A DNA stretch of 29,987 nt from positions 1 to 29,987 of the IMG/VR virus record IMGVR_UViG_3300037045_000291. The stretch is one strand, 5' to 3'. The DNA is from a virus. Its lineage: Duplodnaviria > Caudoviricetes. How positions within the stretch are numbered: position 1 is the first letter of the stretch; every line of letters begins with the position of its first letter. Below, piece after piece: positions 2,287 to 17,600 of the stretch. A program made the position numbers and the translations under genes. The notes beneath the pieces were generated by a model, which worked only from the letters and a program-made list of their open reading frames with translations, was not told the origin of the DNA and searched no databases.

Positions 2287-4095
2287 TTACCACTCACTAA
2301 AATCGACCTCGTTGATTTCTATGACAGATGCCAGATCCCTATACTTTTTGAAAATTTCAAGACTATCTTTAATATCATCATACTCTTCATGCTCAACAAG
2401 TTCATTATCAATTATGTCAAATACCTTGTAGTTTGAAATCACAATACACTTTTTGACAGCCCTAGTAATAGCAACGTTTAACCGGTTAGGACTATAGAAA
2501 AAGTCTAAACGACTCATTGATTCCAATGGGTGCGAATTTCCAAAGCTGTAGATTATGTAATTTCTTTCTTGTCCTTGAATACTATCAACAGTATCCACGA
2601 ATAGCTTTTCGAATGGCTTTTTAATATTTTTTGGCAGAACTTTATTAATAGCTTTTTTGATTTCCCTTACTTGAGCCCTGTATGGTGAGATAATCCCAAT
2701 TTCTTCAATTTTAATTCCATTTGAAAGCAGATCACTTATTAACCCTGCGACCAGTTTGGCTTCATATGGAGAGCGTCCCTGGGCATCAAAAGTATTGTGA
2801 AGAACTAATGTATGGGAACCATTGTTAAGTATTTTGGAATAATCATTAGAAAAATAATACTGGCTGTCAATAATTGTTGTTTCTGCTGCAACTAATTTAT
2901 CGTTATAAAAAAGGTGATTAGGGAGTTTGATTAACTCTTCATTGAGTCTGTAAGACGTCTGTAATAGATGAATTTCCTTGGGATATAATCTTGCTAATCT
3001 GCTAAAGATTGACTCTGCAAACATCTCGTTATTCGACTTTTTGGGAATAATCGGGTCAAGTTGTTTATGGTCTCCTACAAAGATAACTTTTTTCACTCTT
3101 GAAATTATTGCCAATGCTAATGGAATACTTAATTGGGATGCTTCATCTACAATAGCGACATCAAAATTCCATCCCTCCAATTTTTTTGAAACAGGATAAC
3201 ACAATGCATAAACAGTTGCACCAACGGTAATGCCATAATTTCCTGTTACATTATTATCCGATAGAATTGATAACCAACGATTATGTTGGAGTCTTGATAG
3301 TTTTTCAACTATATCGTTTGATTGAATTTCTTTATTATTGGCTTTTTCTCCAATTTTAATTGTTCTCCATTTAACATTTACAGTTTTAGAAATAGAATCA
3401 AGACAGTTGTTGATTGCAGTATGAGTTGGTGCTGTAACAAAAACTTTTTTACCTTCAATAATAAATTGTTTAGCTATACTAGCGATAGTAGTAGTTTTTC
3501 CTGTACCTGGAGGTCCTTGGATTAAACAAAAATCACTGGCACTAACTGCATTTTGAAAAGCTCTGTTTTGTGAATCATTCAAACCTTTTACCCCATCAAC
3601 TTGTGGATAATAACTGTTTTGTGTTTTTCCGTTTAAAAATTTTTCAACTCTAATCAGGTCAAACTCATTACATTCCAGATGTCTTGCAGTGTTTTTCAAC
3701 ATCTTTGTGCCGATATCGGTATAAATACTACATATTTCCCAATTGGTTCTGGGGTAGTCAAGTGAGTTGAGTAAGCAAAATTGAGCGTCCCAATCGTTTG
3801 GTTTTAATATGAAATTATCGACACTGTCTTCATCTACATCCATTTTAAAGCTTATATCACCGTTACTTAAAATAACCGGAGTACCTTCTTTAAATTTTGA
3901 TATATTGTTTTCACAGAAAATTTTTGCTAAAATAATATGTCTGCTTTCAAGTTCAAATTCTACTGTAAGATTTGTCATTAGTACTCCCTTTGCTACACGT
4001 TCATCTATTGGCAATTTTTCTTGTTCGTTGAATTCCTGAATTGTTTTATTGTATTCGATTTCAATCGCTTCATGAAATGATTTCAGTACGTCCAT
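2287..4095 (-). CDS. Superfamily 1B helicase, Upf1/Dna2/IGHMBP2-like (AAA_11 plus AAA_12)
   Basis: Q motif LNDSQ, Walker A GPPGTGKTT, motif Ia APTHTAIN, Walker B VDEASQ, motif III VGDHKQL, YRLN, motif V TVDSIQGQE, motif VI RLNVAITRA. Confidence 0.93.
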   Translation of the reverse strand: MDVLKSFHEAIEIEYNKTIQEFNEQEKLPIDERVAKGVLMTNLTVEFELESRHIILAKIFCENNISKFKEGTPVILSNGDISFKMDVDEDSVDNFILKPNDWDAQFCLLNSLDYPRTNWEICSIYTDIGTKMLKNTARHLECNEFDLIRVEKFLNGKTQNSYYPQVDGVKGLNDSQNRAFQNAVSASDFCLIQGPPGTGKTTTIASIAKQFIIEGKKVFVTAPTHTAINNCLDSISKTVNVKWRTIKIGEKANNKEIQSNDIVEKLSRLQHNRWLSILSDNNVTGNYGITVGATVYALCYPVSKKLEGWNFDVAIVDEASQLSIPLALAIISRVKKVIFVGDHKQLDPIIPKKSNNEMFAESIFSRLARLYPKEIHLLQTSYRLNEELIKLPNHLFYNDKLVAAETTIIDSQYYFSNDYSKILNNGSHTLVLHNTFDAQGRSPYEAKLVAGLISDLLSNGIKIEEIGIISPYRAQVREIKKAINKVLPKNIKKPFEKLFVDTVDSIQGQERNYIIYSFGNSHPLESMSRLDFFYSPNRLNVAITRAVKKCIVISNYKVFDIIDNELVEHEEYDDIKDSLEIFKKYRDLASVIEINEVDFSEW

Positions 4096-5853
4096 TTAAA
4101 TTTTATGTTTAAGTGAGGTTAATATTATTTTTGATTCTCTTGTCATGTCTGGGACTCTGACTGTATAATAATTAGGATAATTCTCATGTAGAACAACCAA
4201 CTGCATAGAAGAAATATTCATTGAATATTCAGTTTCTATAAGTAATTTGTATATGTTTTGTTGTAAGCAGTATCTATAATAACTCGAATTATCTAAATTG
4301 TTTAACTCAGATAAAGCATAGCCATATCCATAAATTCTGGGGCGTCCGTCAATTATTAACTTTTTACTTCTCTTCCAATCGACCATCACATATTCATTTT
4401 TATGTTCTTTTTTGAAAAGGCAGTCAATTGTTCCCGCAATATTGTATTGGTTAGAGAAAACAGCTTTTTCTGCTTCAAAGAAGCTAAGATGTCTTGGCCT
4501 GACTTCATTATTGTAAAACTCAAGGAACATTTTAAATTCCATTAGTTCAGAATCGAACTCTTTACCAGTTAAGAAATTCTCAATTTGACTGTGCAGGTAT
4601 GTGCCTTTTTCTGCAGCCTCATCTCTTGTAAAAAGATACTCGTCAAGCACTTCGTCTTCTGTTCTATTTTCCCTTTCAGCTTTTTTTTCTATGTATCGTT
4701 TTAAATCAAAAGGGAAAAAGCGCTCAATAAGTGTAGTGACAGAAATATACTCGGCATTTCCTGTTTCGTCTTTTGGGTGTAAGTATGTGTGTGACTCTTC
4801 GTCAAAGGCAATATTGCTACTCCAGTTTTCTGATTTAAATTTTTTGGTTCTCTGAATTATATTCTCAATGCTTTCATCTTGTGATGTGTCAATTAGAATC
4901 TCTTTGTAGCTATATTGTTTATGGAATCTCTCTATTCCTAAATACCTTTCACGAAAATAACTTTTTTGCCACTGAATACATTGATTATAGTCCCATTGAT
5001 TTTCTTGTTGGCAGATTATTTCATTTGAAACTGGTCTGTTATACAATGAATTAAGAACGTTTTTCACATAATCTATACACTCAAGAGCTTGACAATGTAC
5101 TTGTCTTTCAGTAAATCTTATAACAATCCATCCACTTTCAGTGAAAAACAAATCTCTTGTATTGTCCTGTTTGGTGTCATCTTCAGGGTTAATATAATGT
5201 GTTGGGTATCTGTAGTATCCATCATAAGGTTCATCTATCTCAATATCTATGTAAAGATTTAAGATTTCATCGAATAGCACAATATCTGGTTCATAAGGTT
5301 TGTTGAAATGCGGGATAACCATATGTACATTATTGGTCATCTCAATATCTCTAATGTTATTTTTTAGCAAATCGAAAAAGTCGTCTTCTTTATATCCCTT
5401 TTGATTTGAACGCCCAGTTCTTGGGAGTTTAAGTATGGAATTTAAAACAGGCATTATAACCACAGGATACAGATATTGCCCTTCTTGTGCGAAGATACTA
5501 TTAGGCTTGTATAAGATTCTAAGGTCATTAGTTTGTGCTTCATTGGGCTCTGACCTAATAATCTGTTTTGATTGCTTTTGGGGTTTTTCTTCCTCAGAAA
5601 TATTTTTCTTTTTTTCTGTTGTAGGAGGTATAGGTATAGATTCTTCAACAGGTGAAGGTGTAATTGGTATATCTACTTTTGACTGTACCCTCAATAATTT
5701 ATATGATGCCCAATCTTGTCTTACCTCGGTAAAAAACCTGCTTTTCTCGTCCTTAGTTAGTTGGGCAGGTGATGTTACTCCATAAAGACTCATTTTTGAC
5801 AAAAAAAAGGCTCTATACTCTTTCTGTAGAATAGATAGTTTTCTTTCTTGCAT
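4096..5853 (-). CDS. Two-nuclease fusion: small N-terminal helical domain, DUF559/Vsr-like endonuclease, C-terminal PD-(D/E)XK (RecB/phage exonuclease-like) nuclease
   Basis: Middle domain PYEPDIVL...IDIEIDEPY...H...D..RDLFFTESGWIVIRF; C-terminal domain FDEESHTY...SVTTLI...GTYLHSQIE...AGTIDCL...VDWK...Y.LQQNIY. Confidence 0.8.
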   Translation of the reverse strand: MQERKLSILQKEYRAFFLSKMSLYGVTSPAQLTKDEKSRFFTEVRQDWASYKLLRVQSKVDIPITPSPVEESIPIPPTTEKKKNISEEEKPQKQSKQIIRSEPNEAQTNDLRILYKPNSIFAQEGQYLYPVVIMPVLNSILKLPRTGRSNQKGYKEDDFFDLLKNNIRDIEMTNNVHMVIPHFNKPYEPDIVLFDEILNLYIDIEIDEPYDGYYRYPTHYINPEDDTKQDNTRDLFFTESGWIVIRFTERQVHCQALECIDYVKNVLNSLYNRPVSNEIICQQENQWDYNQCIQWQKSYFRERYLGIERFHKQYSYKEILIDTSQDESIENIIQRTKKFKSENWSSNIAFDEESHTYLHPKDETGNAEYISVTTLIERFFPFDLKRYIEKKAERENRTEDEVLDEYLFTRDEAAEKGTYLHSQIENFLTGKEFDSELMEFKMFLEFYNNEVRPRHLSFFEAEKAVFSNQYNIAGTIDCLFKKEHKNEYVMVDWKRSKKLIIDGRPRIYGYGYALSELNNLDNSSYYRYCLQQNIYKLLIETEYSMNISSMQLVVLHENYPNYYTVRVPDMTRESKIILTSLKHKI

Positions 5854-5900
5854 TTAATATCGAGAATATTTTATTTGAAATTGTAATTTGCTCTATAATA

Positions 5901-6479
5901 TCAAAATCTGCCTTGTTGAACTTTCTTCCAAAATTTGAATTCTTCGTCAATCAATTTTGAAATATATGATGGATTACTATCTATTTTTAATATCAATGTT
6001 GGTTTGTCAGGTAAGTAACAAAAAAAATCAATTGAGTCCAATCCTGTAATGGCTAATACGTGTTGCAATTGACCATAGTAATAATCTGGAACTTTTTTAT
6101 AATTACTCACATTTTTGTATACCGACTCACCACATTTAATTTCCACAACACTGCTTTTATCAAAAGATAATCCATCTAGGCTTGCTTTTAACCAATCATA
6201 GGTATTACTCTGCAGACACACAGGTCTAACATTTTTGTTATATTTCTCATTATATAACTTGCGTGCGATTGGCTCTAATAGCATTCCTCTTCTCATTGCA
6301 TCATTAATAAATTCATCTTGGGGTGGATTAATTTTTTTGCTTAAAAGTTCAGTTGAAGTTTTCCAAGGATTTTCACCCATAATAATTGGCGCATCTGTAG
6401 CTGAAATTCCGTTGTGTCTCCATTTTTTCCATTCTTGAGAGTCTTGTGTGAGATTCATGATTGAATAGTTACCCTTCAT
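5901..6479 (-). CDS. yqaJ: YqaJ-like viral recombinase / lambda-exonuclease family nuclease
   Basis: QDSQEWKKWR..GISATD..IIMG.NPWKT, AMRRG..LEP.AR, ASLDG, VEIKC, VPDYYYGQLQH. Confidence 0.9.
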   Translation of the reverse strand: MKGNYSIMNLTQDSQEWKKWRHNGISATDAPIIMGENPWKTSTELLSKKINPPQDEFINDAMRRGMLLEPIARKLYNEKYNKNVRPVCLQSNTYDWLKASLDGLSFDKSSVVEIKCGESVYKNVSNYKKVPDYYYGQLQHVLAITGLDSIDFFCYLPDKPTLILKIDSNPSYISKLIDEEFKFWKKVQQGRF

Positions 6480-6618
6480 AAGTGTTAAGTTTTTAAATTG
6501 CCAATTTTTAGATAATTGAATATTAATTTGCTTTTTAAATTATGATTATAGATAAAAGTAAAAATCTCAATCTCAAAAATTTCAATAGTTAATCATCTTT
6601 TCATAGTTCATCAATGCA

Positions 6619-6651
6619 CAAATATACAAATATGTCTTTATATAAACCAAA
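6619..6651 (-). promoter_or_regulatory. Bacteroidota housekeeping-sigma promoter for the yqaJ-nuclease-helicase operon
   Basis: Minus strand reads TTTG (6651-6648), 21 nt, TATATTTG (6626-6619), matching the -33 TTTG / -7 TAnnTTTG consensus. Confidence 0.6.
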
Positions 6652-6689
6652 GAAACATAAAAAATATTTTATTTTACACTATTTGACTA

Positions 6690-6772
6690 AGTTAAACAAT
6701 TCTAAATCAGTCTGTTGACTGGGTAAGAAAGATTGCAAATCTCTAACTCAATTAGTAAGTTTGTACTATAAT
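6690..6772 (+). promoter_or_regulatory. Promoter cassette copy 1 (IHF-like site, -33 TTG, -7 TAAGTTTG)
   Basis: TTG 6733-6735, 20 nt, TAAGTTTG 6756-6763; aligns without gaps to 7314-7396. Confidence 0.75.
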
Positions 6773-6806
6773 CAAAAAGCACTAATCAATTTAAAAACAA
6801 ATAGTT

Positions 6807-7253
6807 ATGACAAACTTATTCAGCAATCCATTATTGGAAGTACAGTCAATCAGCAAAAGAGCAGTAGAAAGATCCGGCCAACTTATTTACGATTTCTTTT
6901 CCGAAATGGAAGCTCAGGGTTACATCGAAAGTTTTGAATTCGAGATGAAACCATACAACAACGGATATGAACTATGTTTTGAACCGAAATGTAATCTCAA
7001 TAAACTGGAAAGTATCCCTGAAATCCTACGGAACTACTGCTTTGGAACTAAAATTATCAACTTCCATCCGGAAAGTTTTTTCAACTCCTACTTTAACGAA
7101 GGCAGTGCTTCAATCACTTACAGAACAGTAGATGGAGATTATAAAACCATCAAGGTAAACGAAGCAACCAATTTTGAAACACTTATAAACGACTTTTGGA
7201 ATGCCAACCGTTCAAAACTTACCGTAGAAACTGAGCTGTTAATATCAAAGTAA
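6807..7253 (+). CDS. Hypothetical phage protein (148 aa)
   Basis: ORF with its own promoter and downstream terminator; start context AAATAGTTATG is shared with the gene at 7420. Confidence 0.8.
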   Translation: MTNLFSNPLLEVQSISKRAVERSGQLIYDFFSEMEAQGYIESFEFEMKPYNNGYELCFEPKCNLNKLESIPEILRNYCFGTKIINFHPESFFNSYFNEGSASITYRTVDGDYKTIKVNEATNFETLINDFWNANRSKLTVETELLISK

Positions 7254-7273
7254 TCACAATTTTTAAAGCTAAG

Positions 7274-7300
7274 AAGGGGGTGTAATTCACTCCCTTTTTT
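7274..7300 (+). terminator. Intrinsic terminator
   Basis: AAGGGGGTG-TAATT-CACTCCCTT stem running into a T tract, 20 nt after the 7253 stop. Confidence 0.8.
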
Positions 7301-7313
7301 GTGCAAAATAATT

Positions 7314-7396
7314 AGTTAAACAAATATAAATCAGTTAGTTATATGCGCTTAGCTGCTTGCAAAAATATTATACCTTTTGTAAGTTTGTATCATAAT
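7314..7396 (+). promoter_or_regulatory. Promoter cassette copy 2 (IHF-like site, -33 TTG, -7 TAAGTTTG)
   Basis: TTG 7357-7359, 20 nt, TAAGTTTG 7380-7387; same register as copy 1. Confidence 0.75.
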
Positions 7397-7419
7397 AAAA
7401 CACTCAAAACTAAATAGTT

Positions 7420-7611
7420 ATGACTACCCAAAAGCAAAAACATTCAGAATTGACATTCACCTATGAATTATTTTACAACGAGTATTTCTGTGATAGGTTT
7501 ACAAGTTTAGATGATGCAATTGGCAGAGCGAAATATATCATAAAAGCTAATCCTGAATCCAAAGGAGGTTTTACCATAGTATTGAACAACACAATTATAG
7601 CAGTATACTAA
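7420..7611 (+). CDS. Small hypothetical phage protein (63 aa)
   Basis: First ORF after promoter copy 2; ends 2 nt before the next gene. Confidence 0.7.
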   Translation: MTTQKQKHSELTFTYELFYNEYFCDRFTSLDDAIGRAKYIIKANPESKGGFTIVLNNTIIAVY

Positions 7612-7613
7612 TC

Positions 7614-7847
7614 ATGGAAACCAAAACTAACAAAGCCCTCTCATTATTCAGCTCCGGTGATATTGCCGGAGCATTGAAAATCTTCAAAACATTCCGGATT
7701 GGATTAACCGCAAATGAAAGAAGAATCCTTCAGATAGCCCAGGAATCATTAACCGGAAAAGAAAGTTTCTACCAGTCATTACAGCTCAATACAGAAGCTA
7801 TAAAGCAAGAAGCAATACAAATCATCAAACAGAAGTATAATCTTTAA
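7614..7847 (+). CDS. Small helical hypothetical protein, of a type I recall from Bacteroidales prophages
   Basis: 77 aa, METKT.KA....G....AL.IF.TFRIG.T..ERR.LQIA.ESL.G...FY..L pattern; operonic spacing. Confidence 0.75.
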   Translation: METKTNKALSLFSSGDIAGALKIFKTFRIGLTANERRILQIAQESLTGKESFYQSLQLNTEAIKQEAIQIIKQKYNL

Positions 7848-7907
7848 AAATTCGCTCTGGCAATAGCTTAGCACTTATTAATAGAATCATCAAATAAAAC
7901 AACAGTT

Positions 7908-8327
7908 ATGGAAACTCCAAAATTATCACCGAAATTAGAAAGCAACTTAAAGTCAATGGAAAACAGCCTTGGTATTTCATTGAAAGGTAAAAAAATCAAC
8001 TATCCCTATATAGGCGAAGGAATAATAGCTGGAGCACAGGGTGGAGAGATTCTCTGGTTCTCTGAATTAAAACAACTCCTATCTTTTCCGGTTGAAGAAA
8101 TATCAATGTACTTAGTTGAAGATGTCGAAGTTATAAAAAATGAAATTAAAAAGAACGACAAAGTTTTTGTTGCCGAAAGAGAAGGTGTAGTCAAAGAAGT
8201 ATACAAAGATGGATTTAAATCCGGAGTTTATGCACCAATGGATTTAATGTGCCAAAGATGGTATTTAGTTGAGTATGGGGATACAATTGGCGTTTTCCCT
8301 GAAAGCCAATTAACTAAAAAGGTCTGA
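7908..8327 (+). CDS. Hypothetical protein, possibly tandem SH3/KOW-like barrels
   Basis: 139 aa; IKKNDKVFV...EGVVKEV...WYLVEY....VFPESQL resembles an SH3-like pattern (inference). Confidence 0.7.
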   Translation: METPKLSPKLESNLKSMENSLGISLKGKKINYPYIGEGIIAGAQGGEILWFSELKQLLSFPVEEISMYLVEDVEVIKNEIKKNDKVFVAEREGVVKEVYKDGFKSGVYAPMDLMCQRWYLVEYGDTIGVFPESQLTKKV

Positions 8328-8355
8328 TAACTGTAGAATAAATCCAGAATCGAAA

Positions 8356-8634
8356 ATGAAGACAACCAATCGAGCCACAGCAATCATCGACACGATAGTC
8401 GAGTATTTGAACGGAACCACAATCTGGAGGGCAGCAATGACGCTGCCTTCAGGAAACGATATCACAGTTTACTGCATGACAGAAGATGGCCCGATGGAAT
8501 TCGGACTTACCTTCAACCAAGAAACGAATCAGTACACAGTCAACCGGACCGGCAAAACTTCAGAATCGAAGTTAGCCCCGAAGCACTGGTCAGACTATTC
8601 CCGCAGAGTAGCATCAAGTCGCAACAATAAATAA
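8356..8634 (+). CDS. Hypothetical phage protein (92 aa)
   Basis: Co-oriented ORF with short intergenic gaps. Confidence 0.7.
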   Translation: MKTTNRATAIIDTIVEYLNGTTIWRAAMTLPSGNDITVYCMTEDGPMEFGLTFNQETNQYTVNRTGKTSESKLAPKHWSDYSRRVASSRNNK

Positions 8635-8647
8635 TCTAAGCAGCATT

Positions 8648-8920
8648 ATGATTACATTAGCTCAAATTCAAAAGCGGTACATGAAACCAATCAACCGTAG
8701 TTTCAAAATGCAAATTGAGAAATACATTTCAGTACCGGAAGTGCAGCACTATATCGAGAAAGCAATGTATTACTCACTCGAAAAAGAAGACTACCGAAAA
8801 CTGGGTGAAATTGGTGGACACAAAGGCAAATATCAGTATTTGTACTGGCTCTGCTGCATTTACATTCACCCACTAACAATAGCTCAGCACATAGTAACAG
8901 AAGCATCAAAAATCAAGTAA
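8648..8920 (+). CDS. Hypothetical phage protein (90 aa)
   Basis: Co-oriented ORF ending 1 nt before the next start. Confidence 0.7.
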   Translation: MITLAQIQKRYMKPINRSFKMQIEKYISVPEVQHYIEKAMYYSLEKEDYRKLGEIGGHKGKYQYLYWLCCIYIHPLTIAQHIVTEASKIK

Positions 8921-8921
8921 T

Positions 8922-9251
8922 ATGGAATCGAATACAGACATCAAACCTTTCTGCAACCTCCACCTTTGGACAGATGTTGAACCATACGAAGTTGTGAAAG
9001 TAATTAGCCCCAAAAAAGTACAGATCAGAAAAATGGATGCCGTTCTGAAGGTGGCTCCTCAAACATTCCATCAGGGAGGTTTTGCGGCCAATTGCGAAGA
9101 CAATCATTCACAACGTTGGGAGTGTGTAAGTAATCCGGATTATCCACTTGAAACAATAACTCTTACTAAAAAAGGTTGGGGAAAGCCCGGAAGTCACGGA
9201 AGGTACAAAATGAATGAAAAGCCAGTGAAGTTTTACGATTACAATTTTTGA
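8922..9251 (+). CDS. Hypothetical phage protein (109 aa) ending KFYDYNF
   Basis: TDVEPYEVVKVIS...GGFAANC...PVKFYDYNF, a pattern I recall from diverse tailed-phage hypothetical proteins; function unknown. Confidence 0.75.
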   Translation: MESNTDIKPFCNLHLWTDVEPYEVVKVISPKKVQIRKMDAVLKVAPQTFHQGGFAANCEDNHSQRWECVSNPDYPLETITLTKKGWGKPGSHGRYKMNEKPVKFYDYNF

Positions 9252-9256
9252 AAGTT

Positions 9257-9448
9257 ATGAAAACACTCAATGTAGTAGTAATGGATTATTCAATCTGTAA
9301 AGTAACCTATCTTCAAAACATCATCTTACCCGAAGAGAACGACGAAGATGAAAGCACCATGATAGAAAATTACCTTTCAGATAACGGATTTCACCTTTCC
9401 AATTGCAATTGGATGTCGAGCGAGGATGAAATCGAGTTTGAAATCTAA
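9257..9448 (+). CDS. Small very acidic hypothetical protein (63 aa)
   Basis: ATG at 9257 in an AAAGTTATG context is preferred over the TTG at 9248; 14 Asp/Glu versus 2 Lys and no Arg. Confidence 0.7.
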   Translation: MKTLNVVVMDYSICKVTYLQNIILPEENDEDESTMIENYLSDNGFHLSNCNWMSSEDEIEFEI

Positions 9449-9531
9449 CAATTCTAATCATCGAAGTATGTCAGGCTAAATCAACGGAACTCAATCAATA
9501 TCAATTTGTTGCGATTATATTTAATTAACAG

Positions 9532-9570
9532 AAAGTGTTTACATGATAAGCATTTTCTGTTTTATTTTTG
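9532..9570 (+). promoter_or_regulatory. Late (head operon) promoter with palindromic operator
   Basis: AAAGTGTTTA-N5-TAAGCATTTT (9532-9556), then TATTTTTG -7 box (9563-9570); same architecture at 28867-28904. Confidence 0.7.
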
Positions 9571-9595
9571 CCTGAAAGAATTTATTACAAGTATC

Positions 9596-10267
9596 ATGAA
9601 TGAGAAGATTTTAGCGCTGTTGACTAATAAATTCACACAGGCAAGAAAAGATGGATTACAGCAGTTGGCACGTTCACTGACGTTACAGGTTGCTGATGAG
9701 TCCGAAGCACAGGCACTTATCGACAAGCTAACGGTCGAAAAAGTAACTGATTTTATCAAAGAATGGAGGCGTGAAGTTGATGCGGAAGTTTCCAATGCCA
9801 ACAAAACCTACGAGGGCACCTTACGCTCGAAGTATGATTTTGTGGATAAGAAAACCCAGACTAACACTCCCACACCCAAAAACGAAACTCCTGAAGACGT
9901 GGCCGAGATTATCAAACAATCCATTCAGGCTGCTGTTGAACCCCTTCAGGAAAAATTATCACTTCTTGAAAGCGGAAAAATCACCGATTCACGTAAGCAA
10001 ACTCTTAAAAGTAAACTTCACAACGCCCCGGCTGCATTTAAAAAAACCGTGTTAAGCAGTTTTGAGAAGATGCAGTTCCAAAGCGATGAAGAGTTCAACT
10101 CTTTCATTTCGGAAACGGAGCAGAATCTTGAAGCATTTACCCAAGAGGCTGCAAACAGCGGATTAGGTGGATTCCCTCGCCCCGGTATTCCTGCCGGAGC
10201 AGTTTCTCAGGATGCGGTTACTGCCGACATTAAAGCATGGGCAGGCGCCAGACAGGAAAATCATTAA
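9596..10267 (+). CDS. Capsid scaffolding protein
   Basis: Likely start is ATG 9596 (MNEKILALL), downstream of the promoter; helical charged protein with a Pro/Thr linker and Gly/Pro C-terminus, two genes upstream of the capsid gene. Confidence 0.75.
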   Translation: MNEKILALLTNKFTQARKDGLQQLARSLTLQVADESEAQALIDKLTVEKVTDFIKEWRREVDAEVSNANKTYEGTLRSKYDFVDKKTQTNTPTPKNETPEDVAEIIKQSIQAAVEPLQEKLSLLESGKITDSRKQTLKSKLHNAPAAFKKTVLSSFEKMQFQSDEEFNSFISETEQNLEAFTQEAANSGLGGFPRPGIPAGAVSQDAVTADIKAWAGARQENH

Positions 10268-10292
10268 TTTATTCACTTTTGAAATTTAAGCT

Positions 10293-10865
10293 ATGCAGAT
10301 TAAAAAAGAATATGCACGAGCCGGAATTCCTATTTGGCAAAGTAAAAACACTCAGGTAGCCCAGGGTGGTTTTTTGCTTCATGATGCAGCATTTAGCACC
10401 GAAGGGACTGTTGTTCCTGCCGGAATTCCAATCGGTTTTGACGAAGCGACCCGCAAGGCAAAGGTTGGCAAGTTTGCCGTAATGCAAGCTACTGCCACTG
10501 CTTCTGCAACAGATTATAAAATCCTTAAAGGGCACAAGCTCAAAGTTGGAATGGCTCTTACAACCACAGGAGCATCAGGGGCACAAAACATTACTGAAAT
10601 CACAACTACCGCTCAGGATTACGATGTGGTGAAACTCTCGGCAACGCTGGGTGTTGCTCTGTCGGTTGGTGATGCTTTGTTTGTGAATGACGAAGGTTTC
10701 ACCCAGCTCAAAGGATTACTCTATGAGGATGTTATCATTGATTCAAACGGAATTGCTGATGTTGCAGTAGTTCTTCACGGAACTGTTTATGCACGTCGTA
10801 TTGTTCCTGTTCCTGATGCTATTCAGGCGAAACTTCCTCTCATTATTTTCTCACAATCTTACTAA
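10293..10865 (+). CDS. Head decoration / auxiliary capsid protein
   Basis: 190 aa between scaffold and major capsid; GGF.L...VPAG.PI...GLLYEDV...V.HGTVY pattern. Confidence 0.65.
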   Translation: MQIKKEYARAGIPIWQSKNTQVAQGGFLLHDAAFSTEGTVVPAGIPIGFDEATRKAKVGKFAVMQATATASATDYKILKGHKLKVGMALTTTGASGAQNITEITTTAQDYDVVKLSATLGVALSVGDALFVNDEGFTQLKGLLYEDVIIDSNGIADVAVVLHGTVYARRIVPVPDAIQAKLPLIIFSQSY

Positions 10866-10880
10866 AAGGAGGGATAATTT

Positions 10881-11969
10881 ATGTCTAAAATACAGTCCAT
10901 TTTCGGGGCTTATGCAAACAGTTTGCAGACTATTATCGACAATAGTCTCGACCGTTTTGCTCCCAACTGGTATCCTAAGTACTTCGGCTGGGCCCCGGCA
11001 CAACAAACTCTTACTTTCACCTCGGTAGTAGGTGCAAGTCGTATTGAAGCAGCAGCTTCGATTGTCAACCGATCTTCCGAAGCTCCATTGAGGGCTCGCT
11101 CGGAACTGAGCAAATATCAGGGTGAAATTCCTGCTATCAAGCAGAAATTCTCCATGCGTGAAGGTGACTACCGTGATTTCCTTGCTCTTCAGGCATCCAG
11201 TCTTGATGAATCAGCCAAGAAAGCTCAGTTACTTGATTTCTTATTCGATGATGTTCAAAAAGCCGGAAGTGCACCACACAAGCGGTTGGATATTATGGTT
11301 CTTCAGGCCATTTCGACCGGAAAGATTTCTTTAACGGTGGATAATAATCCCGACGGTATCATCTTAAAAGAGGATTTAGACCTTTTGATGCCCTATGGTA
11401 ACAAGCTATCGGTTACATCCACTCCGGAACGTAAATGGAGCAATCCACTTACTTCAACTCCTCTTACCGACATTACGAATGTTGTCAATGAAGCCCGGCA
11501 GAAAGGTCACTCATTTGAAAAAATTCTGATGAGCATGACACAGGGGATGCAGCTATCGAAAAGCAAGGAGGTGATTGATAGTTTAATCTCATTCAATCAA
11601 CTTCAAAAAGGTGCTGCTATTGCCACATTTGCTAAGATTAACGAGTACCTGCAAGCTAATTTACTTCCACCTATCGAACTGGTGGATGAAGTCATTGGAA
11701 TTGAAAAGGATGGTATCATCAATACCTTCCGACCATGGCAGGAAGGTAATGTCGCTTTCATTCCTTCTGGTAAACTTGGAGTGATTAAAAACGCTGTTTG
11801 TCTGGAACAAATGCAACCTGTTCAGCATGTAAACTATGCTATTTACAACCGTGCATTACTCAGCAAATGGCAGGAGAACGACCCATGGGCAGAATTTACA
11901 GCTGTTGAGCTCAATGCTTTCCCTGCATTTGAAGCTATCGACAAGGTGTATATTCTAACAGTAGATTAA
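10881..11969 (+). CDS. Major capsid protein (HK97 fold, lambda gpE-like family)
   Basis: 362 aa; position in the module; GEIPAIKQK, QAISTGKI, KWSNP...PLTDI and QENDP.AEFT..E..AFP motifs typical of cap_E-type capsids. Confidence 0.88.
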   Translation: MSKIQSIFGAYANSLQTIIDNSLDRFAPNWYPKYFGWAPAQQTLTFTSVVGASRIEAAASIVNRSSEAPLRARSELSKYQGEIPAIKQKFSMREGDYRDFLALQASSLDESAKKAQLLDFLFDDVQKAGSAPHKRLDIMVLQAISTGKISLTVDNNPDGIILKEDLDLLMPYGNKLSVTSTPERKWSNPLTSTPLTDITNVVNEARQKGHSFEKILMSMTQGMQLSKSKEVIDSLISFNQLQKGAAIATFAKINEYLQANLLPPIELVDEVIGIEKDGIINTFRPWQEGNVAFIPSGKLGVIKNAVCLEQMQPVQHVNYAIYNRALLSKWQENDPWAEFTAVELNAFPAFEAIDKVYILTVD

Positions 11970-11972
11970 TCT

Positions 11973-12278
11973 ATGACTACAAGGCAATACCTGCAAATAG
12001 CACTTTCGAAGTTTGAAGTTGGTGATTCATTGATTGATTTAGTAGTTGTTGAGAACAGCCTTGACCCGGATTCCGATGTAAGTGTTGATGAAGTGAAGCG
12101 AGCGATTCATCGGAGTCTGGGCACATGGCTGCCAGTTCAAACTTCTATTTCTGAAGGTGGGGTTTCCATGACATGGAATTTGGATGCTTTAAAGCTCTAT
12201 TATTCGGCTCTTAGTCGGGAATTAGGCTTGGAGGATATCACCAAACCAACTATCAGAGATATGTCAAACATTTGGTAA
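11973..12278 (+). CDS. Head-tail adaptor/connector
   Basis: 101 aa immediately after the capsid gene, with an SISEGGVSMTW motif typical of connectors. Confidence 0.7.
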   Translation: MTTRQYLQIALSKFEVGDSLIDLVVVENSLDPDSDVSVDEVKRAIHRSLGTWLPVQTSISEGGVSMTWNLDALKLYYSALSRELGLEDITKPTIRDMSNIW

Positions 12279-12279
12279 T

Positions 12280-12588
12280 ATGAAGGGATTTGTACGGGCA
12301 GTATATCAATCGCAGGGGGGTATCAATCAAGATGGGGAACCGATTCCGGCAGTCAAGACATGGGGAGAGTATTCCCCCTGTCTTTATTCTGCAAATACTC
12401 TTTCCAACAAAGGAGTATATGTGGGAGGGGAATTTCAGGAATCATCCTTTACCATTACCCTGAAGAATATGTCGTTCAAAGCAGATTTCATTCAACTTGC
12501 CAACTCTAAAAAAGAGCTGGTTTGTGAAAAGCAGGTATTAAGTCTTGAAGTGTTGGATTCCGTAAAGCGAGTAAAAATTACCCTGTAA
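12280..12588 (+). CDS. Head closure (stopper) protein
   Basis: 102-aa beta-rich protein in the second neck position, with an N-terminal GGINQDGEP loop. Confidence 0.6.
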   Translation: MKGFVRAVYQSQGGINQDGEPIPAVKTWGEYSPCLYSANTLSNKGVYVGGEFQESSFTITLKNMSFKADFIQLANSKKELVCEKQVLSLEVLDSVKRVKITL

Positions 12589-13031
12589 TGCCGATTCATC
12601 AGAAAACACCACAAACAGCCATTGATGAGTACTTATCCAAACGTCTCAAAGAACGTGAGAGTAAGCTCATTTATGCATTGGAATATGTCGGTGTTAGTTG
12701 TGTTCGGGAAGCAAAGCTTAATCCCGGATACATCGACCAAACAGGTAATTTACGAAGCTCTATCGGATATATGATACTCAAAGAGGGAAGAGTTGTTTGC
12801 AGGTCAGGCTTTCATCAGGAAAAACAGGGTGATGATGGTGTAAAAGAGGGAAAGAATTTCCTGAAAAGCCTGATTGCTAATAACCAAAAAGGGTTGGTTT
12901 TGATAGTGGTTGCCGGAATGAATTACGCTGCCTATGTCGAAACCAAACGCAATGTCCTCAAGAAATCAGAATTACTGGCAGAGGAGTTAGTGCCCAAATT
13001 ATTAAGGCAGTTAGGATTCAAAGTGCAATGA
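12588..13031 (+). CDS. HK97 gp10-like neck/tail-completion protein
   Basis: DQTGNLRSSI and GMNYAAYVE motifs; 1-nt overlap with the upstream stop. Confidence 0.8.
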   Translation: MPIHQKTPQTAIDEYLSKRLKERESKLIYALEYVGVSCVREAKLNPGYIDQTGNLRSSIGYMILKEGRVVCRSGFHQEKQGDDGVKEGKNFLKSLIANNQKGLVLIVVAGMNYAAYVETKRNVLKKSELLAEELVPKLLRQLGFKVQ

Positions 13032-13435
13032 AAAAGACCGGAAGTACCTTTGAAAAGGAAGTGTTTCTGCTCATCAGAGATAGTCCATTGAAAGAATCTC
13101 TTTCAGGCGGTATTTATCGTGATGGAATGCGACCCTTCAATTCTGACAAAGAAGATGCTGTCATCTCATTTCTGACAGGTATTGATGGACAGTTCCAGAA
13201 AGGGATTGTAAACATCAACATCTTTGTTCCAGACATTGAGTTCGGAGGTTCCAATAAAGTGAAAAACATCGCCCGGTGCAATCAGATTGAGGAGTTGTGT
13301 CAAGGGATTATCCCTTCTCTCAAAAAGGAGGGTTATCGCTTTTCGTTGGATTCACTCATTCAGACTTTTAAGGCAGAAGAAACCAGTCAGCACTTTGTGA
13401 ATGTGAAGTTGAGATTCGATTATGTGACATTTTAA
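13028..13435 (+). CDS. Tail terminator protein
   Basis: 135 aa directly upstream of the major tail gene, with an ATGA overlap at its start. Confidence 0.65.
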   Translation: MKKTGSTFEKEVFLLIRDSPLKESLSGGIYRDGMRPFNSDKEDAVISFLTGIDGQFQKGIVNINIFVPDIEFGGSNKVKNIARCNQIEELCQGIIPSLKKEGYRFSLDSLIQTFKAEETSQHFVNVKLRFDYVTF

Positions 13436-13447
13436 AAATTTGAAGTT

Positions 13448-13903
13448 ATGGCTTTATCGTGGGGAAAACCAAAGATAGAAGTTGCACCGTATGTAGGCGG
13501 TGCTTTGCCTGCATCTCCAGCATATACTGCTTTTCCGGAAATTAGGGAAGACAGTGCACGACTTTCCACAACTAAGGGAAAGAAGCGGGAAGCAAGGGCA
13601 GAAGGTGGTGAATTAGTTGATATGTGTTACTCAAAAAACGCTTACTCTTTTGAGTGTGAGGTTTTCGTAAAGTCTGGTGATACCCGACCTATCGAAGACA
13701 ACGATGGAGTTATTGCGAATAAATACGCTGTTCGTTTAACACCGGAGGACCCGACAGCAGAGGGTTTCATCTTTGAAAAATCGCTTGTAAGCGTAGAAGA
13801 GATTTGGAGTGCTGCCGATGGAAAGCTCCTCAAATACACTTTTGAAGCACTTAAACCAACAAGCGGTAAGATGTGCAAACCATATACTGGTCAGGCTGAA
13901 TAG
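13448..13903 (+). CDS. Major tail (tube) protein
   Basis: 151-aa beta-rich protein (MALSWGKP...AEGGELVD...YTFEALKP) located before the chaperone and tape measure genes. Confidence 0.8.
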   Translation: MALSWGKPKIEVAPYVGGALPASPAYTAFPEIREDSARLSTTKGKKREARAEGGELVDMCYSKNAYSFECEVFVKSGDTRPIEDNDGVIANKYAVRLTPEDPTAEGFIFEKSLVSVEEIWSAADGKLLKYTFEALKPTSGKMCKPYTGQAE

Positions 13904-13913
13904 CCTCTTTTTT

Positions 13914-13988
13914 AGCGAGGGAGAACGATGGTTGTTCGTTTATTCCATGAGTGAGTAAAAGGTGGTGGTTCGATTCCACCTCTCGCAA
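13914..13988 (+). tRNA. Non-canonical tRNA-like element (initiator tRNA-Met-like scaffold, atypical anticodon arm; pseudo-tRNA or tRNA mimic)
   Basis: Acceptor stem AGCGAGG/TCTCGCA (1:72 mismatch, discriminator A), D-arm GAAC-GATGGTT-GTTC, T-arm GGTGG-TTCGATT-CCACC, CAT at 13946-13948. It lacks U8, A14, A21 and an encoded CCA. Confidence 0.7.
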
Positions 13989-14010
13989 CTTATTTTTTTG
14001 TAGGGTTGAT

Positions 14011-14484
14011 ATGCGTGTTGAAGAAAAAGTAGCCAAAACAATTTTCCAGGAGAAGGAAAAAATCAAAATAGGCAGTAAGGAGTACATGATAGCTCCACCC
14101 ACTACTGCCACACTTATTCAGGTGTCGAGACTGATTGCAAAATTGCCCGACATAAAGCTTGAAAACGATGAAGTGTTTTTTGGGTCACTAATGATTGCCA
14201 AAGAATGCCATATTTTGGGCAAAATAGCCGCAATTTTAATATTGGGCGTGGATAGGCATATCTTTTATCATTCCGAAAGAAAAACGCTCTTAAATCGCCT
14301 AAAAACACGCCATGCCAGAAAAGTCGATGAACTTGCCGATGTGATGCTGTTTGAATGCAAACCCAGCGAGGTGAATTCATTCATCGTAAACCAACTTTCG
14401 AGAATGGAGATTGGCGATTTTTTCGGGCTTACCACTTCCCTGTGCGAAATAAATATCCTAAGAAAAACAAGGGGAGTGGTGTAG
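14011..14484 (+). CDS. Tail assembly chaperone (gpG-like)
   Basis: Likely start is ATG 14011 (MRVEEKV), because the track's GTG at 13951 lies inside the tRNA-like element; sits between major tail and tape measure. Confidence 0.75.
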   Translation: MRVEEKVAKTIFQEKEKIKIGSKEYMIAPPTTATLIQVSRLIAKLPDIKLENDEVFFGSLMIAKECHILGKIAAILILGVDRHIFYHSERKTLLNRLKTRHARKVDELADVMLFECKPSEVNSFIVNQLSRMEIGDFFGLTTSLCEINILRKTRGVV

Positions 14485-14687
14485 ATAACGACAGTATTTG
14501 GTCACTGGTAGCAGGTGTTGCCAAAAACTTTCCTCAACTCAAATTCAACGAAATTCTTTTTGATTTAAGCTATTCCAATTTGGTGCTTTACAGTGCCGTG
14601 TTGCCAACATACGAAGATGACAACGGTGATATCGATGCCGATGACCCACGTAACAAACATCTGATAAGGAGCATGCTGTATGATTAA
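14418..14687 (+). CDS. C-terminal extension of the tail chaperone (gpGT-like), reached by -1 ribosomal frameshift
   Basis: In-frame slippery heptamer T TTT TTC at 14418-14424; the -1 frame is open to 14687 (…DNDSIWSLVAGVAKNF…SYSNLVLYSAVLP…) and overlaps the tape measure start. Confidence 0.65.
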   Translation, partial: FFRAYHFPVRNKYPKKNKGSGVDNDSIWSLVAGVAKNFPQLKFNEILFDLSYSNLVLYSAVLPTYEDDNGDIDADDPRNKHLIRSMLYD

Positions 14688-17600
14688 CGATTCCGGAAAA
14701 ATATGGTACTCAACAGGGATTGATAATTCCCAACTTCAGAGGGATGCCGAAAAAGCTAAGGGGCTTATCGGAAGCATCGGACAAAGGGCGGTTGATGAGG
14801 GTAGTCGAATAGATAATACCCTTAGTCAACTGGGAAAAGCTTTTGCCACTGTTTTCACTATTCAACAGGCAGCCAATTTTGCCCGGGAGTTAGCCAATGT
14901 CAGAGGGGAGTTTCAACAGTTGGAGATAGCTTTTACCACCATGCTCAAAAGCAAGGAAAGGGCTGATCTTTTGATGCGTGAAATAGTGGACTTTGCAGCT
15001 ACCACTCCATTTGACCTTCAAGGTGTGGCTTCGGGTGCAAAGCAGCTTTTGGCATATGGATTCACGGCAGACAGCATTCGTGATAATCTTACTATGTTGG
15101 GTAACGTTGCAGCAGGTGTTGGTTCTCAAATTGGAGATATCATCTACCTGTACGGAACGTTGAACGCTCAGGGAAAGGTTATGACCAAAGACCTGATGCA
15201 GTTTGCCGGTCGAGGTATTCCCATCTACAAAGAGCTGGCAGCCGTACTACAGGTTACTGAAAAGGAAGTGATGGACTTTGCATCTTCTGGTCAGCTTTCC
15301 TTCGCTCATGTTGAACAGGCATTCAAAAACATGGTCAGTGAATCAGGGATGTTTTATAACCTGATGCAGGAACAATCCAAATCCATCACTGGCCAGCTAT
15401 CCAACTTAGGGGATTCCATCGACCAGATGTTCAATCAGATTGGTCAGTCCTCAGAAGGTGTTATTTCGGGTGCAATTTCTGGTGCTGCATATTTGGTGGA
15501 AAACTACCAAAAGGTAGGTGAAGTGATTGGTTCGCTGGTTGCCGTTTACGGTACTTACAAAGCTGCTATCATGGTGTTTAATGTGGTTCAATCCACATCC
15601 ATCGCTTTAAGCAGGGGCTGGACAGTTGCTGAACTTGCAAAGTTCAAAGCTTTGGTACTGGTAGAAGGTGCTCAAAAACTCCTTAACAAAACCATGTTGG
15701 CTAATCCTTACATAGCAGCTACAATGGCGGTAGTTACTCTTACTACTGCTTTAACCTTTTACGCCCGGAGTGCCAAGAAAGCCCAATCAGAAACTCAAAT
15801 GCTGGGCGACATAACCAAGGAAGCTGAAAGTAACATCAAGACAGAGGTTTCAGAGTTAGAGTCTTTGCGAAAGATACTCGATGATTCCACTAAAGGCTAT
15901 TCAGACAGGAAGAAAGCATTGGATAAAATCAGGGAAATTGTTCCTGAATATCATGCATCACTCTCTACTGAGGGAGCGCTGATAAACAACAATTCCGATG
16001 CGCTGGACGGTTATGTAAAGAAACTCAAATACACCGAACAGGTTCGGATTGCTGTTGCAAAACAGGCAGAAGCACAGGAGACGCTCGATAGCTGGAAAGC
16101 TAAAAACAGGGATGTCCTTGCTGGTGCTGTTGCAAAAAAGTACGGTGGTAGGGAGAATGAAATGTTTGCAGGCGAAAAGGCTGCAATGGATATCTACAAG
16201 CGCCTTTCCGATGAAGCTCATAAATACTCACTGGTAATTGATAAGCTTCAGGAGGAGATGCTAAAGGTAACACCTGAAACATCTACTTCTTTTACAGCAC
16301 CAGAGAAGGATGATAAAAAAACCGACAAGCTACTCAATCAAATCAGGAACGAAAAGATAGAAATCGAGCGGGCCAAGGAGGATTTATACTTTAATCGTGT
16401 AGAAGCGGAACTGGAACTATTGGAAGAAGGTTCAGCCAAAGAACTGGCTCAGTTGGAGCTTAATTTTCGTCGTAAGATAACCGAAATCAATCGTCAGGAG
16501 GATGAACTTTTACAGGTATTACGCAACCATGCTAAAAAGGAATGGGAAGCAAAGGGTGGTCAGGGTACATTTAACGAAAACTCCATCACTCTACCAAAGG
16601 AACAGGCCGATGAGTTCGAACGCCTGCGGGATGCTGAAAGTAAATCTTACGAAATTGCACAGGGTGATGTTTACAAGAAACTCCTTATAAAATATCAAAC
16701 CTATGCAGAACAAAGAAAAAGCATCGAGGAGAAATTTCAAAAGGACATTGCCGAACTGACTACAAAGTTCGGAGCTGATAGTTCGGCTGTAAAGGTTGCA
16801 ACAGAACAGATGAAACAGGCACTGGATGAACTCTCTAAAGATGTTCTACAGGACAGTGGTTCGGGACTGTTGGATTTATACCTATTCGGGGATGGTACGG
16901 ACTTTATTACATCAAAAATAAAGGAGGCCTTACCCTTATTCGAGGATATCACCAAACTATCCTACAACGAGCTTTCAAAGGTTAAGGAAATCATCGGCAA
17001 AGTGACTTTTACCGACAAGCAGTTAGCACTTTTTAAAGAAGCTGGTATCGATATCGAAAAACTCAAAACAGCACTGGATGAAGCTAAAGAGTCAGCCGAT
17101 GAGATGCTGGATGTCAAGGCATGGGAAAAGGTTGATGAAATGGCCAAAAAACTTTCTGATTCACTGGGTGAATTAGGGGACTCGCTTTCTACCTTCTCAG
17201 GAGTAATGGGTGAAATCGGGAAAGCTATTTCAGGGATTTCCGGCAGTCTGGATGATGTGCTCACTTCCTTTGATAAGAACGCTACTTCAATGGATATCGT
17301 CAGTGCAGGTATTTCCGGACTTTCCACACTGCTTTCCATGATTGGAAACCAGATAGAGCAAAACAGGCAGGCTCAGGAAGAATGGAACTTAAAGATTCTC
17401 GAAGCAGCTCATAACATATCTATGGCTCGCATCGAAATGGAAGCTTATAAGGAATCAAACATCTTTGGAGTTGAGAATCCCTACGCTAAAGCGATAGCTG
17501 GTGCACGGCAATATTCTGCTGCGATTTTTGAGCTCAAATCAACCGCAAACACTCTTTCTCAGGGGAAAGTTCAAACCGGAACAAAGCAACAGCTTGATGC

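Follow-up and report, generated by a model that had tools for sequence, protein, structure and literature searches.

A candidate two-gene nuclease-helicase defence system of Bacteroidota, with a nuclease N-terminus shared with large phages

The viral record IMGVR_UViG_3300037045_000291 (Caudoviricetes), whose whole stretch of 29,987 nucleotides (nt) is called the window here, carries on its minus strand the gene of a tandem nuclease (4096-5853; 585 amino acids (aa) by open reading frame (ORF) call) and, directly behind it, the gene of a Upf1/IGHMBP2/Dna2-family superfamily 1 (SF1) helicase (2287-4095; 602 aa). The nuclease and its abutting Upf1-type helicase form a conserved two-gene unit. Judged by sequence and gene neighbourhood, the pair is a strong candidate for an anti-phage defence system of Bacteroidota, and such a system has probably not been described so far. 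In addition, the nuclease begins with a small module shared with phages, which may direct its action.

The conserved nuclease-helicase pair

A genome scan confirmed 105 stretches, the best 80 of which were kept (79 loci): 42 with the long-form nuclease and 37 with its first nuclease domain only. The helicase lies directly downstream of the full nuclease in all 42 loci (helicase identity 49-62%), and where both ORFs were called, in 40 loci, the two genes are separated by -1 to +3 nt. In the window, the nuclease stop codon (4098-4096) directly abuts the helicase start codon (4095-4093), which agrees with the TAA/ATG junction pointed out in an earlier note made from the window's letters. That note had treated a third gene, yqaJ (5901-6479, minus strand; 192 aa), as part of the same system. 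This exonuclease gene does share the slot and strand of the pair, but it occurs in none of the 42 nuclease loci, 33 of which have at least 1 kb of upstream sequence, and neither nuclease nor helicase occurs in the best 80 of 141 yqaJ loci, 41 of which have at least 1 kb downstream. Because the helicase is constant (42/42) and yqaJ absent (0/42 and 0/80), the conserved unit consists of two genes, not three; the proposed linkage stands for nuclease and helicase and fails for yqaJ, and a three-gene system with YqaJ is rejected.

The pair often keeps company with known defence genes: at least one such neighbour was found in 24 of the 42 loci, a count that covers 145 of 164 representative ORFs, includes several short contigs and has no background set beside it. 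Type I restriction-modification (RM) genes stand beside the pair in 11 loci, and in 7 the pair sits between hsdS and hsdR, while other neighbours include DRT-type reverse transcriptases (4 loci), AbiE, CBASS, PsyrTA, Septu, Tiamat, a retron and PDC candidates. The hosts of the nuclease loci are almost all Bacteroidota, and yet the pair is rare, patchy and without fixed chromosomal neighbours: besides the centre, 6 of 400 sampled Bacteroidota genomes match the nuclease cassette, some with one domain only, and none of the 400 matches the N-terminal module. The full-length nuclease was found in none of the viral contigs or named phages searched, and blastn found no match to the pair in plasmids. 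As a separate observation, a UG19-like reverse transcriptase with a 207-211-aa partner adjoins the pair in L006, L009, L034 and L041; three of these loci have it upstream of the pair and one has it downstream. The nuclease gene is broken by an inserted 315-aa ORF in L031 (8599-11494) and fragmented in L010 and L042, as would be expected if genomes acquire and lose it.

The helicase matches AAA_11/AAA_12 and, below the cut-off, TIGR00376 (E 7e-68). Motifs Q, I (GPPGTGKT, 194-201), Ia, II (DEASQ, 317) and III-VI are all present, so that the helicase is intact, as had been claimed.

How the pair relates to described systems is best seen by comparison. Mokosh (10.1101/2022.05.11.491447) also joins a Upf1-like (COG1112) helicase to a nuclease, and its MkoA is the best PADLOC match of the helicase (E 2e-57). 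However, this match spans only profile positions 609-1097 of 1112, the Mokosh nuclease, separate or fused, is of the PLD family whereas the nuclease here has two PD-(D/E)XK domains and neither protein has a PLD match, and the Ser/Thr kinase carried by the type I Mokosh helicase has no match in the 602-aa helicase. Gabija, Hachiman, Nhi, AbpAB and Hna belong to a class of one to three genes from defence islands that combine a PD-(D/E)XK nuclease with a helicase (10.1101/2025.07.10.664194). The pair resembles this class in keeping both genes in one conserved operon (42/42), and differs from it in the family of its helicase, in having a tandem nuclease and in an N-terminus that can be exchanged; no model of the class names the nuclease. 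Gabija consists of an OLD/Toprim GajA, which has no match here, and a UvrD-type GajB, matched only at E 4e-5 over short stretches. Hachiman pairs HamA with a superfamily 2 helicase, HamB, in contrast to the SF1 helicase here, and no Ham match was seen for the helicase among the 25 of 33 families listed, nor any for the nuclease. Nhi is a single nuclease-helicase polypeptide, whereas two genes are found here in 42/42 loci and the Nhi match is confined to the P-loop region.

Like the nuclease here, Upx (PMC13099982) combines two nuclease domains of the PD-(D/E)XK type in a single chain, and its activation by a phage protein offers a precedent, but it is described as a single protein with an N-terminal domain, a regulatory middle domain and a PD-(D/E)XK C-terminal domain, and 60 members of the nuclease family give no Upx match in PADLOC or NCBIfam. 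CoCoNuT type III-B (PMC11090510) and the DUF4011 fusions (Hhe, ProA, PDC-S37) combine a Upf1-like helicase with a Vsr/DUF559-like nuclease; however, that nuclease is fused to the helicase, and a McrBC GTPase or DUF4011 is present, whereas the genes here are separate and a second nuclease is present. No McrB GTPase or DUF4011 neighbour is conserved among the 42 loci, and the Hhe, ProA and PDC-S37 matches cover the helicase core only. Across NCBIfam and PADLOC no model names the nuclease, the 60 members giving only weak Cas4 matches and matches that come from their N-termini. The literature searched, largely by title, yielded no description of the pair or the module, although supplementary candidate tables might list the family. 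The earlier view of an unnamed combination with defence-island neighbours is supported: in PADLOC the best match, MkoA, is partial, the pair would work along the lines of Mokosh and other nuclease-helicase systems but departs from Mokosh, Gabija, Hachiman, Nhi and CoCoNuT III-B in features that define them, and it occupies a variable slot of a phage.

Dna2 is a nuclease with a four-cysteine Fe-S cluster fused to a helicase. The pair is like Dna2 and MGME1 in its Upf1-family helicase and RecB-type nuclease fold, but its genes are split, it has an extra nuclease, and no four-cysteine Fe-S motif is conserved; the second nuclease domain holds two cysteines (C478 and C529), and C259 is the sole near-invariant cysteine in alignment A3. 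'Split Dna2', as the earlier note had put it, is an analogy only, the second domain being structurally closest to MGME1.

The tandem nuclease and its N-terminal module

From its N-terminus, the nuclease is composed of a 45-aa helix-loop-helix module (residues 7-52; 5698-5835), a low-complexity linker (53-98; 5560-5697) that is gappy and unconserved in alignment A1 and modelled with a predicted local distance difference test score (pLDDT) under 35, a DUF559/Vsr-like PD-(D/E)XK domain (domain 1, 125-310; 4924-5481) and an MGME1/RecB/lambda-exonuclease-type PD-(D/E)XK domain (domain 2, 345-583; 4105-4821), all encoded on the minus strand. Domain 1 matches DUF559 in the window protein only at E 0.005-0.016, below the cut-off, but does so above it in the relatives P0125, P0139 and P0200. 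Its predicted structure is poor and the fold assignment rests on sequence; the residues E188 (57/60), D190 (58/60), E205 and D207 (both 60/60) and H219 (58/60) are kept in alignment A3 (n=60). Domain 2 matches PDDEXK_1 (E 0.004) and the phrog_298 exonuclease (E 6e-25), and its best Foldseek match is human MGME1 (E 2e-7), followed by AdnA, Cas4 and AddAB, with the RecE fold also similar. H421, D477, D492 and Y535 are kept in 60/60 members of the same alignment, and K494 and Q531 in 58/60. A sequence search of the PDB gave no real match to the nuclease. YqaJ, for its part, matches PF09588 (E 9e-28) and, above the cut-off, TIGR03033; the three nuclease domains once listed for the locus can be recognised, the DUF559-like one mainly through its relatives.

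The search for nuclease homologues returned 1248 among 7995 scored, and 127 of the best 150 representatives cover both nuclease domains. Their N-terminal extensions range from none to more than 900 residues; in 64 that were scanned these include HU, VWA, HerA, UvrD, reverse transcriptase, SH3, SPOR, WG, Sel1, TPR, BatD and pentapeptide repeats, and many members start with a hydrophobic anchor. By these alignments, the tandem nuclease behaves as a conserved cassette to which different N-termini can be joined, a feature that the earlier note does not mention, and its linkage to the helicase is not family-wide. HU takes the position of the module in P0131 and P0134, the related helicase of L061 follows a gene that joins an HU-type N-terminus to domain 1, and in L025 a VWA domain with a membrane anchor replaces the module while the helicase is retained. 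Other members are fused to a reverse transcriptase (P0173), to a UvrD helicase with an RNase T domain (P0136) or to a membrane HerA-like ATPase (P0124), and these fusions are candidates for further defence architectures. Domain 1 also stands alone (L047-L085, L111), usually behind hydrophobic stretches and commonly in cyanobacteria and Bacteroidota, and domain 2 alone (about 250 aa) is found among housekeeping genes (L112, L335-L340).

The module, likewise absent from the earlier note, is common to large T4-type/jumbo phage proteins and matches phrog_28651 (E 4e-7). With the nuclease copy as query it was found in 24 of 50,697 phage records, and with phage copies as queries in 57 and 73 of them; the records listed are 191-462 kb in size, and Tenacibaculum phages pT24 and PTm1 are among the carriers. 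A hidden Markov model (HMM) built from 14 viral rows alone recovers the window nuclease (E 2e-12), 39 of the 42 loci and every one of 119 close homologues, whereas among 150 family representatives it finds just 5. The predicted helix-loop-helix (pLDDT 85) superposes on BFVD models with a root-mean-square deviation of 0.4-0.7 over 39-40 residues, the top viral structural matches being the same phage proteins, and its conserved surface is aromatic (Y13, F17, F40, F41, W48). Among solved folds none is prominent: the best VIA match, to generic helices, has Z 5.8, and a PDB search by sequence reached no better than E 0.19. A SAP/HeH-like DNA-binding fold, a possible alternative, is not among the matches listed.

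In viruses the module was met in about 660 stretches by one codon pattern and in 1519 proteins among 7989 scored. It occurs in one to three copies per protein, either stand-alone in proteins of 55-67 aa or within glutamate-rich proteins; of the best 120 viral proteins, 23 have two or three copies and none has the nuclease core. No sequence match to T4 was seen among the records listed, and the marine-type module had no match in named phages. Two proteins annotated 'DNA ligase 1', pT24 gp169 (L001:3117-5927) and Va1_209 (L087:6959-7144), resemble the glutamate-rich module proteins, and this label is likely a misannotation. Among close homologues of the nuclease, P0008 has two tandem N-terminal modules.

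The distribution of the module, rather than a rooted tree, leads us to infer from sequence that the bacterial module was captured from phages. In a tree of 90 rows and 52 columns, with P rows labelled phage by assumption, 20 of 21 bacterial copies fall in one branch (99/94) that joins copies from Erwinia, Yersinia and Pseudomonas phages.

Possible roles of the module

Upf1-family helicases travel 5' to 3', and the helicase of the pair would move in this direction on single strands, feeding DNA to domain 1 as an endonuclease and domain 2 as an exonuclease. Nuclease and helicase would form a complex by analogy with tested nuclease-NTPase defence systems, which do so (10.1101/2025.07.10.664194), and the N-terminus would set where or when the nuclease acts. 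We tentatively favour a reading, whose probability we place somewhat short of even, in which the pair defends Bacteroidota and the module, as a mimic, attaches it to a head-assembly component of large myoviruses; that the module gives phage-directed docking at all is held with the same reserve or slightly more. The phage module would probably be head-internal cargo excised by the prohead protease, and the nuclease copy would bind the partner of the phage copy, so that recruitment or activation of the enzyme would come at a late stage of infection and phage DNA would be destroyed, whether or not the cell dies.

Several observations are consistent with such cargo. A L/I-x-E triplet, as a sequence pattern only, precedes 37 of 82 phage module copies, against 205 of 1460 positions in the same proteins (14%), and L/I-X-E is the cleavage motif of the T4 gp21 prohead protease (PMC9026906). 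T4 internal or prohead core proteins are similarly small cargo in E-rich proteins behind such sites (PMC3012670, PMC9026906). In Illi-2, L092, L099, L100, L101 and L104 the module gene has a portal, protease, scaffold or capsid gene as its neighbour. As a precedent for the docking reading, T4 capsid-targeting sequences fused to foreign nucleases do bring these into heads.

A number of findings weigh against phage-head docking. A T4-type head gene lies within 3 kb in only 17 of 80 viral module loci, and some module genes stand among replication genes (L095, L098, Va1, pT24). The capsid-targeting N-terminus pattern used for T4-type head proteins is seen in 6 of 84 module proteins against 51 of 476 neighbours, although in another set of module proteins it reaches 30 of 120. 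The literature search found neither virion proteomics nor a binding partner for any module protein. The module tree has no real root and only 52 columns, the nearest phage copies come from Erwinia, Yersinia and Pseudomonas phages and not from Bacteroidota phages, and the bacterial copy of L024 sits elsewhere on a long branch. The helicase is also paired with a module-less tandem nuclease in L107 and in L025/L108 (apparently the same gene), and 5 of 7 module-less tandem nuclease loci lack a helicase within 1.5 kb downstream. In the nuclease linker, of which 20 of 38 examples were parsed, L/I-x-E occurs at 1.72 versus 1.87 per 100 aa; since it is not enriched, a protease tripwire in this linker is rejected. 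A predicted complex of nuclease module and phage module scored 0.01 against a mark of 0.32; obtained without folded controls, this score counts neither for nor against docking.

HU or a membrane anchor at the module position of sister proteins, as in P0131, P0134 and near the related helicase of L061, is compatible with a plain tether, and this too speaks against docking on phage heads. The module would then bind DNA or a host structure with no phage specificity, and in phages it would be a small DNA-associated head peptide, much as lysines of T4 internal proteins touch DNA (PMC3012670). The mostly net basic charge of the bacterial copies fits (19 of 20 at net 0 or above), but phage copies are mixed, 8 of 14 being neutral or acidic, the conserved surface is aromatic, and, less tellingly, the top structural rows hold no known DNA-binding fold; we regard a generic tether as rather unlikely, though as the chief competitor of the docking reading.

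The bacterial module could also be an integrated decoy. The phage module would then be an injected or late-acting factor that another phage protein, such as the prohead protease, binds or cuts, and the bacterial copy would be a bait whose engagement would free an inhibited nuclease and bring about abortive infection. Protease-type sites flank the phage module, prohead proteases cleave and so activate CBASS enzymes (10.64898/2026.03.04.709575), and T4 internal proteins are described as injected counter-defence factors. However, the cleavage triplet is not enriched in the nuclease linker, and L025 keeps the helicase with a VWA domain and membrane anchor in place of the module, which makes a decoy improbable. 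Equally improbable is a bolder form of the docking reading, in which the captured head-cargo module draws nuclease and helicase to, or into, assembling proheads and the genome is destroyed at packaging or in the next infection. Under prohead homing the cassette would be one effector of a large family whose targeting parts are exchanged, among them the phage module, HU, membrane anchors and periplasmic sensors.

A repair or recombination machine for end resection, a split Dna2 or AdnAB-like enzyme rather than a defence system, might be read from the likeness of domain 2 to MGME1, AdnA, AddAB and RecE folds and from the Upf1/Dna2 family of the helicase, but a rare and patchy pair without fixed chromosomal neighbours or Fe-S cysteines, inserted in RM operons and in a phage cargo slot, makes this very unlikely. 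A three-gene system that needs YqaJ, suggested by co-orientation behind one promoter at a distance of 47 nt from the nuclease start, is hardly credible given the absence of co-occurrence and the miscellaneous neighbours of the nearest YqaJ relatives (48-58% identity).

The carrier element and the meaning of the pair

The pair and yqaJ lie behind a promoter of the Bacteroidetes type (consensus TTTG-N19-21-TAnnTTTG) at 6619-6651 on the minus strand, facing into a variable slot. The consensus has four matches in the window against 1.0+/-1.1 expected by chance, one of them at 6651-6619, and both boxes are invariant in 4/4 aligned related viral contigs; a sigma-70 scan gave 51 matches against 38.9+/-6.2 by chance, not usefully above it. 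The ORF calls and this match confirm the earlier description of three co-oriented genes behind one consensus promoter, and the AT-richness reported for the locus holds as well (GC 0.326 versus 0.411 in the structural genes). Eight close viral contigs have small genes and structural genes in common with the window, and in the five relatives that reach this region homology stops at 6580-6615, just past the promoter. Beyond it L114 has a P-loop NTPase, which we take to be KAP-like, and L123 and L124 carry a different gene pair, presumably a transposase and an integrase. Because the relatives differ in content beyond a conserved promoter, the region looks like a variable cargo slot. Three of the relatives have been assigned to proviruses, and because one of these begins at a 148-aa gene, flanking host DNA may be present; att sites of the element were not located.

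Two further co-oriented ORFs, which the earlier note does not mention, follow the helicase on the minus strand, at 1250-2071 (273 aa, with an acidic C-terminal tail) and 369-1229 (286 aa, with a pair of hydrophobic stretches close to its C-terminal end). With a GC content of 0.29 they are more AT-rich still. They gave no family match in library searches and are absent from the 42 nuclease loci and the 80 yqaJ loci; membership in the system is rejected on these grounds, and they are probably further cargo of the slot.

Contigs from 4/4 sequencing runs, belonging to four studies, contain pieces of the cassette that are exact or have one difference; although no listed piece spans it, this recurrence indicates that the cassette sequence is real. 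Short pieces identical to parts of the nuclease and helicase genes also turn up in RNA run X3 at a depth of 2-3, which does not demonstrate transcription.

The remainder of the window (6807-29576) and the relatives G406, G407 and G408 have genes for capsid, tape measure and tail proteins and holin-like genes. Among the ORFs scanned, which were part of those in the window and in the stretches read from the relatives, none could be identified as a terminase, portal or integrase gene; in L125, a distant relative, the scaffold homologue is directly preceded by terminase- and portal-like genes. A 120-bp upstream stretch is duplicated at 6690-6809 and about 7300-7420, ahead of small rightward genes (blastn cross-hits), and is probably a repeated phage promoter region. 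The other variable end of the provirus G406 (L127:1584-2549, 4529-14822) encodes a homologue of domain 1 that stands alone, a pair resembling type III RM and a protein of 1616 aa that contains a helicase.

In summary, the pair is an additional, unnamed nuclease-helicase candidate of two genes from Bacteroidota, whose defences as a phylum are thinly tested, and its nuclease belongs to a large modular family in which N-termini are swapped. The module is itself widespread and unannotated in T4-type and jumbo phages, and as a phage-derived part it predicts, testably, which phages are targeted. Should it steer the nuclease into proheads, the pair would be a natural counterpart of engineered T4 capsid-targeting fusions.

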